From NCBI GenBank assembly GCA_964348535.1, contig CAYGDB010000001.1, positions 1 through 49,460 of the forward strand: 49,460 nucleotides of DNA, read 5' to 3'. The notes under the pieces are model-generated. The model saw only the letters and a list, made by a program, of their open reading frames with translations, did no database searches and was not told the origin of the DNA. Source of the stretch: an uncultured Candidatus Saccharibacteria bacterium. GTDB lineage: Bacteria; Patescibacteriota; Minisyncoccia; Phycocordibacterales; JAKFXT01. The translations under genes were made by a program, and so were the position numbers. This document shows positions 34,329 to 38,290 of the stretch, in pieces. The number at the start of each line of letters is the position of its first letter. Positions within the stretch are counted from its first letter, which is position 1.

Positions 34329-36485
34329 ATGAATATTAATCATTTTTTGCGCCGGGCTTTGATTGTGGGCGTCTTTTTTATCCCTTTCATTGTTTTAATC
34401 GTGCCGGGCAATATGTTTTTTCCTTTTATTACTGGGAAGAATTTTACTTTTAGGATTATTGTGGAAGTTCTCCTTGGCCTTTATCTGGCGCTTGCTCTAA
34501 GGGATTCTTCTTATCGACCCAGATTTTCTTGGTTGCTTGGTTCTTTCGCGATTTTTCTGGCCATTATAGGACTTGCCGATTTGTTGGGAGAAAATCCTTA
34601 TAAAAGTTTTTGGAGCAATTTTGAACGGATGGAGGGATACATAACTTTTCTCCATCTTTTTGCTTATTTTGTTATCGCGAGCGTCGTTTTCAACACGGAA
34701 AAACTTTGGGAGCGTCTTTTTCAAACGTCTTTGGTGGCAAGTGTTATTTTGGCCGGTTACGGTCTTCTCCAGGCCTTTGGCGTGCTTGCCATTCATCAGG
34801 GCTCAAGTCGGGTTGATGCTTCGCTCGGAAACTCTACCTATTTTGCCGTCTATGTCGTCATTCATATTTTCTTGGCGATGTTTCTTTTTCTCAAGCATAG
34901 AGAAATCTTGGGTTTGAAGATTTTTTACGGACTCTCCGTTCTTTTGAATCTTTTTATTTTGTATCAGACAGAAACTCGCGGCGCCATTATTGGATTTGTG
35001 GGCGGTATCTTTTTGACCGCCCTCATCATCGCCTTATTTGAAAAAGATGATAAGCGAACAAAAAAAATAGCAGTAGGTGGAGTGATTGGAATTATTGTCA
35101 TTGTCAGTCTTTTTATTACTTTTCGCGATTCTTCTTTTATTAAAGATAGTCGCACTTTTGGGCGTCTTGCCGGCATATCTTTAAGCGATGCTTATACCAA
35201 CCCCCGCATCCCGATCTGGACTCTTGCCTTTGAAGGATTTAAAGAGAAGCCGATTTTGGGATGGGGGCAGGAAAATTTTAATTACGTTTTCAATAAATAC
35301 TATACGCCGAATCTTTATCCGCAGGAGCAGTGGTTTGACCGCAGTCACAATATTATTCTCGACTGGCTTATAGCGGGCGGTATTTTGGGGTTGCTCGGAT
35401 ATCTCTCTCTTTATTTTCTTTCCCTTTTTTATATTTGGAAAAAAGGGGAATTCACTTTCAAAGAGAAAGCGGTTTTAACTGGTCTTTTCGGTGCTTATTT
35501 TTTCCACAACATCTTCGTTTTTGACCACCTCGTTTCTCTCATCCTTTTTGTAACTTTGTTTTCCTATCTTCATTCTCATTCAGTTCGCTCGAGGTTGGGG
35601 ATTCCAAAACCTGCCAAGTCTCCTAACCTTTGGCTTCAAAAATCAGCCCTTCCAGCCGGAATTATTTTATCTCTCGGTTTGGTTTATTTTATAAATTGGA
35701 ACGCTTATTCGGCAAATCTTAATCTCATAAAGGCCATAACGGTATCTCAAAAGCCAGAGGAAAGCATCGTGTTTTTCAAAAAGGCTCTTGGTTACGACGC
35801 TTTTGGAAATCAAGAAATTCGGGAACAGCTGATGCAGTACGCTATGAATATCAGAAATGCTCAAGTTCCCGATTCCGCAAAGCAAGAAATCGCCAAGTTG
35901 ACTGTCGAAGAAATGAAAAAAATGATAGAACAGGCGCCAAACGACCCGCGCCACTACCTTTTCTTTGGCAGTGTTTTAGACGCTTATGGTGATCCTGACG
36001 ATGGAGAAAAATATTTAACAAAAGCCCTTGAGCTTTCTCCAAAAAAACAATCCATTATTTTTCAGCTTGGCACTCATTATCTAAACATAGGCAACAAACA
36101 AAAAGCCCTTGAGCTTTTTAAGCAGGCCTATGACCTTGAGCCGAATTATCCGGAAGCAAAGTTGATTTACGCTATGGGAGCGATTTATGCTGGCAATAAT
36201 AAACTGGCGGAAGATCTGATAGGCAAAGAAATAGTTATCGACGACAGATTACTCCGTGCTTATGCGGATAATAAACAATTCAGCAAAGCGGCTGATATCA
36301 TAAAAGCTAAAATCGCTTTGAATCCAGGCGACATACAAACACGACTTACTCTGGCTGCTCTTTATTATCAGGCGGGACAGAAGAGTAATGCCGTCTCTGT
36401 TATTAAAGAAATCATCGCTCAAAATCCCGATTTTAAAACTCAGGGCGAGAGCTTCATCAAAGAAATACAAGCCGGGGGAATTTAG
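34329..36485 (+). CDS. O-antigen ligase (Wzy_C) domain membrane protein with C-terminal TPR repeats
   Basis: ORF 34185 overlaps gtrA; ATG 34329 (MNINHFLRR) is preferred. YQTETRGAIIGFVGG and RSHNIILDWLIAGGILG. TPR-like KALELSPKK...ALELFKQAYDLEPNYPEA. Confidence 0.8.
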   Translation: MNINHFLRRALIVGVFFIPFIVLIVPGNMFFPFITGKNFTFRIIVEVLLGLYLALALRDSSYRPRFSWLLGSFAIFLAIIGLADLLGENPYKSFWSNFERMEGYITFLHLFAYFVIASVVFNTEKLWERLFQTSLVASVILAGYGLLQAFGVLAIHQGSSRVDASLGNSTYFAVYVVIHIFLAMFLFLKHREILGLKIFYGLSVLLNLFILYQTETRGAIIGFVGGIFLTALIIALFEKDDKRTKKIAVGGVIGIIVIVSLFITFRDSSFIKDSRTFGRLAGISLSDAYTNPRIPIWTLAFEGFKEKPILGWGQENFNYVFNKYYTPNLYPQEQWFDRSHNIILDWLIAGGILGLLGYLSLYFLSLFYIWKKGEFTFKEKAVLTGLFGAYFFHNIFVFDHLVSLILFVTLFSYLHSHSVRSRLGIPKPAKSPNLWLQKSALPAGIILSLGLVYFINWNAYSANLNLIKAITVSQKPEESIVFFKKALGYDAFGNQEIREQLMQYAMNIRNAQVPDSAKQEIAKLTVEEMKKMIEQAPNDPRHYLFFGSVLDAYGDPDDGEKYLTKALELSPKKQSIIFQLGTHYLNIGNKQKALELFKQAYDLEPNYPEAKLIYAMGAIYAGNNKLAEDLIGKEIVIDDRLLRAYADNKQFSKAADIIKAKIALNPGDIQTRLTLAALYYQAGQKSNAVSVIKEIIAQNPDFKTQGESFIKEIQAGGI

Positions 36486-36486
36486 T

Positions 36487-36514
36487 TTGACTTATTTAAT
36501 ATTTTTGCTATACT
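36487..36514 (+). promoter_or_regulatory. Strong candidate promoter with extended -10
   Basis: TTGACT (36487-36492), 16-nt spacer, TGcTATACT (36506-36514). Confidence 0.6.
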
Positions 36515-36803
36515 CAAAGGCGTGAGTGCTGACGAATTGTTAGCTCTTAGAATATCTGCGTAGGGACCCGCTTCGGCGGGTCTTGACGTTTTATATACTG
36601 TGAATTACGAAACTCCTCGCAGGCGCATTTTTGTGAGACATTTCGCAGGCTGACGAGCCGAGAATAGCAAAAAATCAGCAGATTTTTATGCGCGTCGAGC
36701 AAAAAATTGCGCCAAGCAAAGAGTTTCGTAATTTTACGAATATAAGAAAGAATCTGCTATACTTTGGTAGTCCTTTCCAAAGAGGACTGACGGCTGCACT
36801 CAC
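36515..36803 (+). ncRNA. Candidate structured RNA / long structured murB leader, class unknown
   Basis: Nested helices: 36522-36529/36796-36803 (8 bp), 36603-36615/36721-36733 (13 bp), 36622-36632/36701-36713 (11 bp with one bulge). C(UUCG)G hairpin at 36565-36582. I see no convincing ORF. Confidence 0.35.
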
Positions 36804-36850
36804 ATAGATATTCTTTTGGAGCTCGCACCCGTCGGTCCTCTTTGGACGGT

Positions 36851-37867
36851 ATGAAAATTCAAGAACAGATCTCGCTAAAAAATCACACCACATTTAAGAT
36901 TGGCGGAAACGCCCGCTATTTTTTTGAAGCGGAATCGCTTGAAGATGTTATTGAAGCCATTCGTTTCGCAAAAAATCAGGTCATTCCATTTTTTATTTTG
37001 GGCGGAGGGTCTAACACTCTTTTTGTTTCTCCTTCGTTTGATGGCGTTGTTATCAAGATTGATATAAAAAGAAAAGAGTTTAAGGATATTGGCGGTTCTG
37101 TTTTTGTCAGCGTCGGGGCGGGAGAGATTTGGGATGAATTTGTCAGTGATTGTGTCGGCAAAAATCTTTTTGGAATTGAAAATCTTTCCGCTATTCCGGG
37201 GAAGGTCGGCGCCGCTCCGATTCAAAACATAGGAGCCTATGGGACGGAGGTTAAAAATACAATTCATTCGGTTGAATTTTTTGATATTAAAAATGAAGTT
37301 ACAAGAGTTCTTTCAAAAGAAGACTGTCTTTTTGGTTATCGTGACAGTTTTTTTAAAACAAGCGAGGGTCGAAATTTCTTGATTACCGGGGTGAACTTTC
37401 TTTTGAAGAAAGAGGGCAATTTGAATTTTTCTTATAAAGACGTGGCGAATTATTTTGAAACTAATGACACGGAGCCGACATTAAAAAGTATGCGTAAGGC
37501 TATTATAGAGATAAGGAAGGGTAAATTTCCAGACATAAAAAGTATAGGCACTGCCGGTTCTTTTTTTAAAAATCCCATTATTGATTTGGAGCATTATTCC
37601 CTTTTAGTGTCGCGTTTTAAAGGTATTCCGGGAATTCCATTTGACTCCCATTCGGTTAAAGTTCCAGCAGGATGGCTGGTTGAGCGGGTGGGCGGTTTTA
37701 AGGGCGTTCGGTATGGGGATGTCGGTGTGTGGGAAAATCAAGCTCTTGTTTTGGTTAATTTTGGTCACGCAAGCGGTCAAGAAATTTTATCACTCTCAAA
37801 AAAAATACAAGAAAAAGTTAAAAGTGATATTGGAATAACTATTGAGCCTGAAGTGGTGATAATATAA
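36851..37867 (+). CDS. murB: UDP-N-acetylenolpyruvoylglucosamine reductase
   Basis: MKIQEQISLKNHTTFKIGGNARYFFE...ILGGGSNTLF (FAD PCMH domain) and C-terminal AGWLVERVGGFKG...ALVLVNFGHASG. Confidence 0.9.
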   Translation: MKIQEQISLKNHTTFKIGGNARYFFEAESLEDVIEAIRFAKNQVIPFFILGGGSNTLFVSPSFDGVVIKIDIKRKEFKDIGGSVFVSVGAGEIWDEFVSDCVGKNLFGIENLSAIPGKVGAAPIQNIGAYGTEVKNTIHSVEFFDIKNEVTRVLSKEDCLFGYRDSFFKTSEGRNFLITGVNFLLKKEGNLNFSYKDVANYFETNDTEPTLKSMRKAIIEIRKGKFPDIKSIGTAGSFFKNPIIDLEHYSLLVSRFKGIPGIPFDSHSVKVPAGWLVERVGGFKGVRYGDVGVWENQALVLVNFGHASGQEILSLSKKIQEKVKSDIGITIEPEVVII

Positions 37868-37891: not shown

Positions 37892-37961
37892 ATATATGTC
37901 CCTTATATACTCCTCAGCTCGGACGAAAAATCAGAATTTTCTGTCGCTCGCTCTACGTCGC
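37892..37961 (+). repeat. Palindromic repeat element, copy 2 (hairpin interior missing), intergenic
   Basis: ATATATGTCCCT|TATAT, CTCCTCAGCTCGGA (37910-37923) and CTCGCTCTACGTCGC (37947-37961) are colinear with copy 1 at 13375-13471. Confidence 0.65.
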
Positions 37962-37970
37962 ATATAAATT

Positions 37971-37991
37971 ATTTTTTATTTTTTATTTTTT
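37971..37991. repeat. (ATTTTTT)3 tandem heptamer
   Basis: Read directly; it lies 17 nt upstream of the DnaA-box 9-mer. Confidence 0.9.
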
Positions 37992-38007
37992 AATCAAACT
38001 TAAAAAG

Positions 38008-38016
38008 TTATCCACA
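38008..38016 (+). promoter_or_regulatory. Perfect DnaA-box consensus 9-mer TTATCCACA
   Basis: Exact match to the R1-type box in intergenic DNA. Protein binding is inference. Confidence 0.4.
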
Positions 38017-38174: not shown

Positions 38175-38231
38175 ATGGCAGCAAAAAAGAAAAAGGCTAC
38201 TAAAAAAGTAGCTGCAAAGAAGAAGAGATAA
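38175..38231 (+). CDS. Candidate 18-aa lysine-rich micro-protein or leader peptide (MAAKKKKATKKVAAKKKR)
   Basis: ATG...TAA read directly. No Shine-Dalgarno. A perfect terminator starts 21 nt after the stop. A candidate promoter is TTGTGG (38035-38040)/GATAAT (38058-38063). Confidence 0.3.
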   Translation: MAAKKKKATKKVAAKKKR

Positions 38232-38251
38232 TATCTTTTCTCACTTTAAAC

Positions 38252-38290
38252 AAAACACCTTCGTCCTCGGACGAAGGTGTTTTGTTTTTT
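38252..38290 (+). terminator. Rho-independent terminator
   Basis: AAAACACCTTCGTCC (38252-38266) pairs with GGACGAAGGTGTTTT (38269-38283), then TTTGTTTTTT. Confidence 0.85.

Follow-up and report, generated by a model that had tools for sequence, protein, structure and literature searches.

Organization of the region upstream of murB

The window analysed here is contig C1 (49,460 nt) of the 675-kb, 60-contig genome (G000) of an uncultured Candidatus Saccharibacteria bacterium, and the region of interest is the 365-nt gap at 36486-36850 between a Wzy_C/TPR gene and murB, which is followed by secA from 38385. The N-terminus of MurB, MKIQEQISLKNHTTF, aligns with the MurB starts of relatives, and the gap in front of it holds short open reading frames (ORFs) only, in agreement with a previous sequence-only reading that saw no credible ORF there. 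That reading had proposed a single promoter-driven RNA of ~290 nt, either an undescribed structured noncoding RNA or a large cis-regulatory leader for murB. Instead, the gap is likely a composite of three units, namely a putative small RNA gene (RNA-1), a miniature inverted-repeat transposable element (MITE) and a second putative RNA gene (RNA-2), the features of which are listed in Table 1. Each of the short ORFs is either antisense to RNA-2 or shares sequence with the MITE.

Table 1. Positions of the genes, RNA segments and repeat parts in and beside the 365-nt gap (TIR, terminal inverted repeat; TSD, target-site duplication)
Feature	Position	Strand	Remarks
Wzy_C/TPR gene, 766 aa	34185-36485	+	
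RNA-1 promoter, TTGACT, 16 nt, TG-n-TATACT	36487..36514	+	Starts 2 nt past the Wzy_C/TPR stop codon
RNA-1, ~75 nt	36522..36596	+	Promoter-to-terminator unit
RNA-1 segment A, GUGAGUGC	36522-29	+	At the predicted +1
RNA-1 small hairpin x	36528-45	+	
RNA-1 single-stranded segment B with preceding AGCUC	36540-58	+	
RNA-1 terminator hairpin, UUCG loop, then U-rich tail	36559-88	+	Terminator-like site
Flanking ATATA	36593-97 and 36740-44		Likely remnant of the target duplication
MITE-like repeat, 142 bp	36598..36739	.	Repeat copies, TIRs, TSDs, empty sites
Left TIR, GTGAATTACGAAACTC	36600-36615		
MITE inner inverted repeat	36622-35/36700-13		
Right TIR, decayed	36721-36736		3 mismatches
RNA-2 extended -10, TGCTATACT, predicted here also to drive murB	36755..36763	+	Exact repeat of the RNA-1 -10 block
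RNA-2	36771..36851	+	21-bp covarying helix with invariant apex
RNA-2 5' arm; 3' arm	36771-36793; 36829-36851	+	Pairing ends at 36851, the A of the murB ATG
RNA-2 apex A', GCACUCACA	36796-36804	+	
RNA-2 variable loop B'	36805-36815	+	
RNA-2 apex A'', UUGGAGCUCGC	36816-36826	+	
murB (UDP-N-acetylenolpyruvoylglucosamine reductase)	36851..37867	+	Pfam MurB_C and FAD_binding_4; ATG abuts the RNA-2 hairpin base

RNA-2 is a conserved and covarying hairpin

RNA-2 is preceded by a TATACT-like box ~7 nt upstream of its hairpin, and this box is found at the same position in relatives. In an alignment of 83 RNA-2 sequences (A1), compensatory two-sided changes were detected at 21/21 basal pairs, with 92.8% of the cells paired, compared with 38-48% when the partners were slid by 1-3 columns. 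A total of 590 cells were changed on both sides of the 21-bp helix, G-U pairs are common, and none of 500 shuffles reached the observed covariation score. Folded alone, the RNA-2 of the window reaches -42.8 kcal/mol, and the hairpin previously noted at 36769-36788 is indeed present.

The apex of RNA-2 is invariant and consists of GCACUCACA, a variable loop of 10-25 nt and then UUGGAGCU(C/A)GC. RNAalifold places CUC-GAG and CA-UG pairs inside this apex, and their invariance means that covariation cannot test them. In the more distant members of the family only CACUCACA and UGGAG are fixed.

The stretch 36791-36831 is 85-93% identical in ~25 of 60 relatives belonging to many families, while the flanking proteins are far more diverged (40-57% identity for MurB and 39-65% for Wzy/TPR). 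A pattern scan with one genome per species returned ~85 instances of the motif with complementary flanking arms, and the public records that carry the same conserved motif are metagenome-assembled genomes of Patescibacteria/Paceibacterota (Parcubacteria). With the covariance model R1, against which the RNA-2 of the window scores 83.7 bits, RNA-2 is single-copy in this genome and was found in exactly one copy in 41 of the 151 class genomes sampled; in the families that have it, nearly all sampled members do. A broader model, R2, detected RNA-2 in 3/151 sampled genomes of the phylum, all of them from this class, so RNA-2 was found only in this class. The model-derived alignment A3, which has two antisense rows, played no part in model building.

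No known family accounts for this hairpin. Rfam 15 gave zero matches at the gathering threshold over the whole window, and at E values up to 10 the stretch 36350-36950 returned only chance-level matches to microRNA, small nucleolar RNA and CRISPR-repeat models. A scan of the gap for tRNA and transfer-messenger RNA (tmRNA) found none, which, together with the Rfam result, bears out the previous failure to recognize RNase P, tmRNA or signal recognition particle (SRP) signatures in it. In the literature on Patescibacteria, or the candidate phyla radiation (CPR), with SRP RNA, structured RNA or signal recognition particle, no description of the RNA-1/RNA-2 pair was found. These results support an undescribed, conserved and covarying RNA structure upstream of murB.

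RNA-1 is a putative small terminator-ended RNA

The promoter previously noted in front of RNA-1 is present, with 10/12 matches to the consensus and an extended -10, and in relatives GTGAGTGC is preceded at an equal distance by a sequence of the form TTGAC..TGCTAYACT. The 7-bp hairpin capped by UUCG at 36565-36582 also exists and, followed by a U-rich tail, is predicted to be the terminator of RNA-1. Homologues of RNA-1 share GUGAGUGC at the predicted start, a small variable hairpin, a single-stranded A-rich stretch that closes with a semi-conserved block resembling GAAUGUCU (segment B), and a GC-rich hairpin with a U tail. When the homologues were folded one by one, the 5' hairpin, the single-stranded B and the terminator were recovered in 49/49 sequences, while a MAFFT alignment of RNA-1, with its variable hairpins misaligned, gave no consensus structure in RNAalifold.

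To keep pairing out of its definition, RNA-1 was called by a -10 box and GTGAGTG within 900 nt, and a candidate was found by these criteria in 67/85 loci. The promoter-linked GTGAGTGC and GCACTCACA occur once each in the genome; RNA-1 is thus single-copy here, and no other perfect target for it was found in this genome.

RNA-1 and RNA-2 are predicted to pair with each other

In most loci the same strand carries both genes, with RNA-1 110-700 nt upstream of RNA-2. RNA-1 is encoded on the opposite strand upstream of RNA-2 in four loci (L015, L064, L089 and L113), and on the opposite strand downstream of RNA-2 in L039-L041. Such arrangements on either strand in other genomes suggest that RNA-1 and RNA-2 are separate transcripts. 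Each module has promoter and terminator signals of its own, RNA-2 being followed by its own terminator in ~19 loci.

The two RNAs are complementary in two blocks. The 8-bp outer helix described earlier (36522-36529 with 36796-36803) is present and extends to 13 nt at 85%; it joins the 5' end of RNA-1 (A) to A' of RNA-2, with a duplex energy of -15.3 kcal/mol in the window. The second block is formed by the B segment of RNA-1 and the variable loop of RNA-2, for which the cognate duplexes average -11.2 kcal/mol versus -6.1 kcal/mol for non-cognate ones (n=50). The cognate partner ranked first in 18/50 cases and among the top five in 38/50, and 0 of 10,000 permutations reached the observed mean (p<1e-4). 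In the window the extended B:B' duplex reaches -21.7 kcal/mol, and in many lineages the B duplex continues to the UGGAG of RNA-2 via a CUCCA stretch in RNA-1. These contacts were calculated with duplexfold, since RNAcofold cannot model loop-to-strand contacts and left both RNAs folded. Co-varying complementarity between separately transcribed RNAs is what would be expected of a trans-acting pair of a base-pairing small RNA (sRNA) and its target, and RNA-1 and RNA-2 are accordingly a candidate for such a pair.

The predicted folds of the free RNAs suggest how binding might proceed. RNA-1 on its own has its 5' GAG paired to the CUC that would bind RNA-2, and unbound RNA-2 has the A' CUC paired to the GAG within UGGAG. 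As a dedicated base-pairing, antisense-type pair, the two RNAs would make their first contact between the single-stranded B of RNA-1 and the variable apical loop of RNA-2. The invariant 5' GUGAGUG of RNA-1 would then pair with the invariant CACUCAC of RNA-2, and the part of RNA-1 that contains CUC (in the window, AGCUC) with GGAG/GAGCU of RNA-2. Binding would thus start from the loop contact and exchange two GAG:CUC helices reciprocally, leading to a complex that resembles a four-way junction. Because the blocks stand in swapped order (A..B versus A'..B'), the complex would be a junction and not one continuous duplex. A' could pair either in cis or in trans, so that any change in it would call for three simultaneous compensations, which may explain why A' and its partners are invariant while their surroundings covary.

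The conserved blocks might also be thought to lack any RNA function and to serve the wzy/TPR-murB-secA region purely as DNA, providing its promoter, terminator and protein-binding sites. They do include promoter and terminator signals, and a DnaA box lies 1.2 kb downstream. Yet pairing in the 21-bp helix is kept by compensation with Watson-Crick and G-U pairs, of which the G-U pairs work only in an RNA of this strand, and co-variation between two separate loci lacks a rationale at the DNA level; this explanation is therefore barely credible.

A recent MITE insertion separates the two putative RNA genes

The unit between RNA-1 and RNA-2 is a mobile repeat. A search of the genome itself located further copies of its core, 36589-36733, with 92-94% identity on contigs C8, C38, C40, C3 and C50, with truncated copies at the ends of contigs C52 and C29. 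At least eight copies are present, comprising six full ones (141-143 bp) and two at contig ends, besides shorter forms, and every copy is intergenic. The 16-nt TIRs, GTGAATTACGAAACTC / GAGTTTCGTAATTCAC, are perfect or near-perfect in C3, C8, C38, C40 and C50, and AT-rich 7-bp TSDs flank the copies on C38 (TAAAGAA), C8 (TTTTAAA), C50 (TAAATAA) and C3 (TCTATGA/TCTGTGA); the copy in the window retains only ATATA on each side. A genome-wide scan for the TIRs also found short TIR-only forms of 47-78 bp, and detected in this genome no TIR pair 0.7-3 kb apart that could represent a parent insertion sequence (IS).

MITE-free alleles are found in close relatives. In metagenome contigs of related strains (runs X2, X5 and X9), 36597 is joined to 36755 or 36773 by 12-30 different nucleotides that replace the MITE. 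Depth increases 5-15 fold across 36606-36707, which fits a multi-copy repeat. Two genomes from the same genus (G001) and the same family (G008) are without the MITE, their flanking blocks lying 60-70 nt apart versus ~210 nt here. From the repeat copies, the TIRs and TSDs, and the MITE-free alleles in relatives, it follows that 36598-36739 is a recent insertion of the MITE type.

This non-autonomous 142-bp element would have landed in an AT-rich spacer right behind the RNA-1 terminator, with neither gene disrupted. Its site lies exactly between the U tail of RNA-1 and the extended -10 of RNA-2, and this spacer is the one part of the gap in which other insertions are also tolerated, in two relatives (L018 and L019). 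That the MITE hit the only non-conserved stretch of the gap is consistent with selection on both RNA genes.

The nature of this unit decides the fate of the single ~290-nt RNA, either noncoding RNA or long murB leader, in which three long-range helices would fold together. The two inner pairs on which it was built are both present, at 36603-36615/36721-36733 (13 bp, inside a 30-nt arm pair) and at 36622-36632/36701-36713 (11 bp), and they prove to be the TIR pair and the inner repeat of the MITE, that is, parts of a mobile element missing from related strains and genomes. The outer helix, in turn, would join two separately promoted RNAs, and the nesting of the three helices in one transcript falls with this. 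A strong promoter stands at the 5' end, the U-tract of the RNA-1 terminator is interrupted, so that some read-through is conceivable, and the 296-nt stretch folds far better than shuffled sequences (z = -6.2). Yet the reverse complement folds equally well (z = -6.3), which points to a contribution from DNA-level palindromes; furthermore, the two conserved modules lie on opposite strands in other genomes, and a terminator-like hairpin follows the first module in the 49 folded homologues. The single-RNA model is thus largely refuted, and we consider it highly unlikely.

Parts of the previous proposal survive in a different form. The region does contain a conserved, covarying RNA without an Rfam match, only not one RNA of ~290 nt, as ~142 nt of it are MITE; and RNA-2, rather than the whole stretch, is physically the murB leader in this lineage. 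Similarly, the RNA-1 and RNA-2 modules are conserved among relatives and RNA-2 covaries, while the MITE with its two helices is missing there. The case cautions against relying on sequence alone, since the insertion of a MITE between neighbouring genes can mimic the nested helices of a large structured RNA.

Correia/CREE of Neisseria, RUP of Streptococcus pneumoniae and ERIC are bacterial MITEs or palindromic intergenic repeats. The present element resembles them in its size of ~140 bp, its TIRs and short AT-rich target duplications, its many intergenic copies without an ORF, the long hairpin formed on either strand and its association with assembly breaks. Unlike them, it combines the TIR GTGAATTACGAAACTC with a 7-bp TSD that match no assignable IS family, and it occurs in full length alongside TIR-only forms of 47-78 bp. 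In addition, three order-mates (G038, G028 and G045) carry many diverged copies of the family (69-80% identity, at least 11 copies in G038), indicating that it has spread across the order.

RNA-2 and the translation start of murB

In ~34/84 loci RNA-2 abuts murB. The murB ATG lies -1 to +11 nt from the last hairpin pair in ~20 lineages, with GGAG or GGAA inside the 3' arm, and in the window the RNA-2 helix buries 25 nt upstream of the murB start, including a purine-rich stretch like a Shine-Dalgarno (SD) sequence, as well as the A of the ATG. From this arrangement, RNA-2 is predicted to be a murB leader that hides the ribosome-binding region in these ~20 lineages. In the lineage of the window RNA-2 (~80 nt, with its own extended -10) would run straight into murB, and binding of RNA-1 would alter the translation of murB, or else the stability or activity of RNA-2, with an effect in either direction. 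In the most likely reading, RNA-1 belongs to an antisense-type switch whose target is the RNA masking the murB ribosome-binding site.

In its widest form, this proposal is a class-wide chromosomal switch in which two RNAs swap helices and thereby gate cell-wall precursor synthesis through murB, and possibly the secA region, which would represent a new RNA family and a new regulatory architecture. We put it forward tentatively, as a possibility and not as the probable outcome. Several points weigh against the main reading, a base-pairing RNA pair that acts on murB. About half of the loci have no murB beside RNA-2, which there runs into a terminator of its own with the secA region beyond; the lack of an adjacent murB in many loci implies that murB control is not its sole or ancestral role. 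RNA-1 was recovered in only 67 of the 85 loci under the criteria used. Neither the A:A' helix nor the apical cis helix shows any variation, so that both are backed by conserved complementarity and not by covariation. The apical contact lies ~25 bp from the buried ribosome site, a distance across which the effect of binding would have to be transmitted. Finally, the transcript ends, the expression and the mutual binding of RNA-1 and RNA-2 are predictions from sequence.

The same observations could be read as a stand-alone two-piece RNA or ribonucleoprotein (RNP), for example a protein-sequestering or housekeeping one, for which the adjacency to murB would be incidental promoter sharing. Such an RNP would fit a single-copy, class-wide RNA-2 with many lineages in which it has a terminator and no adjacent murB, an invariant apex of the kind expected of a protein-binding or tertiary-contact site, and an RNA-1 for which this genome offers no other perfect target. 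No partner protein has been identified for it, and a murB start 0-11 nt from the helix base with SD-like purines inside, in ~20 lineages, is hard to square with neutral read-through. We regard a stand-alone RNP as rather unlikely.

Comparison with universal RNA families

Since RF00169, RF01854 and RF00013 gave zero matches in this genome, and RF00169 none in 151 class genomes, we considered whether RNA-2, alone or with RNA-1, could be a highly divergent SRP RNA or 6S RNA missed by the Rfam models. RNA-2 is, after all, a single-copy hairpin of ~100 nt near secA. An SRP RNA is contradicted by the lack in RNA-2 of a GNRA tetraloop and of the AGCA/AGG symmetric-loop motif, by an apical loop that is variable (10-25 nt) and covaries with RNA-1, and by the failure to find Ffh or FtsY as a binding protein. 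6S RNA is a rod of ~150-200 nt with a large central bubble, and RNA-2 is too short (~80-100 nt) for it, with a continuous 21-bp stem and no central bubble. Furthermore, RNase P RNA and tmRNA were found elsewhere in this genome, which also speaks against a divergent universal RNA here. Altogether, the identification of RNA-2 with SRP RNA or 6S RNA is extremely improbable. A motif search for SRP RNA gave one weak candidate on contig C6, which was rejected by Rfam, and readings as hammerhead, hepatitis delta virus-like or K-turn RNAs were discarded as the core motifs do not fit.

The SRP pathway itself was not detectable in this genome or in the class and phylum samples. Pfam SRP_SPB and SRP54 and the NCBIfam ffh model had no match in this genome; SRP54 gave only partial matches at the level of the P-loop in 101 class genomes, and 0/101 phylum genomes matched at E<=1e-10. 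The E. coli Ffh protein matched 0/61 class genomes, and a GTPase motif of the DTAGR type was absent from the six-frame ORFs of this genome except for one in L31. The control genomes all gave matches in these searches. Some CPR records carry FtsY or Ffh annotations, which is at odds with an absence of the pathway, and the literature searched as described above yielded no description of SRP loss.

Other features of the region

The pentamer TGACG occurs four times, at 36530, 36584, 36651 and 36788, as noticed earlier, against 0.28 expected in the 317 nt considered (local Poisson P ~2e-4, in a test chosen post hoc). The four sites fall in the RNA-1 hairpin, the RNA-1 terminator, the MITE and the RNA-2 arm, respectively; the three non-MITE sites are not conserved in homologues, and the site within the MITE is conserved among MITE copies only.

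Downstream of murB, the gap before secA possesses a lysine-rich micro-ORF of 18 codons (MAAKKKKATKKVAAKKKR) at 38176-38231 (+), followed by a strong terminator at 38248-38287, and this stretch is conserved in relatives. A perfect DnaA box, TTATCCACA, is located at 38008-38016 beside an AT-rich run at 37968-38000. A replication origin was considered on account of this box and rejected, as the window shows no switch of GC skew and DnaA-box-like sites are not enriched; the site is probably not oriC. In L039-L041, TGTGGATAA boxes adjoin RNA-2. Moreover, a repeat of ~65 nt with a TATACT box, at 37904-37968, recurs on contig C5 of the same genome (9958-10022, 89%) and on contig C30 (2233-2309, 82%), and its family is also present in the relative G011.

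Likeness to known riboregulators

The proposed pair recalls the antisense control of CopA-CopT (plasmid R1) and RNAI-RNAII (ColE1), which proceeds from loop contact to a four-way junction. As in those systems, a small terminator-ended RNA would touch the apical loop of a long leader hairpin, and, as in CopA-CopT, a second helix would form by strand exchange between hairpins, with the target hairpin located before a translation start. CopA and CopT, however, derive from the two strands of one DNA segment and show full complementarity, whereas RNA-1 and RNA-2 are separate genes that mostly share a strand and show partial complementarity only, in two blocks of swapped order. In addition, CopA-CopT is a copy-control module of a plasmid, while RNA-1 and RNA-2 are chromosomal and conserved throughout the class.

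OxyS-fhlA, in which a trans-encoded sRNA binds a structured leader at two separate sites, offers a second parallel. Both systems have two discontinuous pairing blocks, one of them in the loop of a target hairpin, and an sRNA with a 5' seed and a Rho-independent terminator, here a predicted one. In contrast to OxyS, RNA-1 appears to be dedicated to a single neighbouring partner, and in many lineages RNA-2 would itself be a discrete sRNA with its own terminator. RNA-2 is also similar to SD-sequestering leaders and the expression platforms of riboswitches in holding SD-like purines and a start codon in the 3' arm of a stable helix (-42.8 kcal/mol, as above). Unlike riboswitch platforms, it has no ligand-binding aptamer signature or Rfam match, and the proposed effector is another RNA.

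Patescibacteria, to which the ultra-small bacteria of this class belong, represent a large share of bacterial diversity, and to our knowledge almost nothing has been described of RNA-based regulation in them, with essentially no riboregulators known. A single-copy, class-wide sRNA pair located before a peptidoglycan gene and near secA would therefore be a testable candidate for a core riboregulator of this group.
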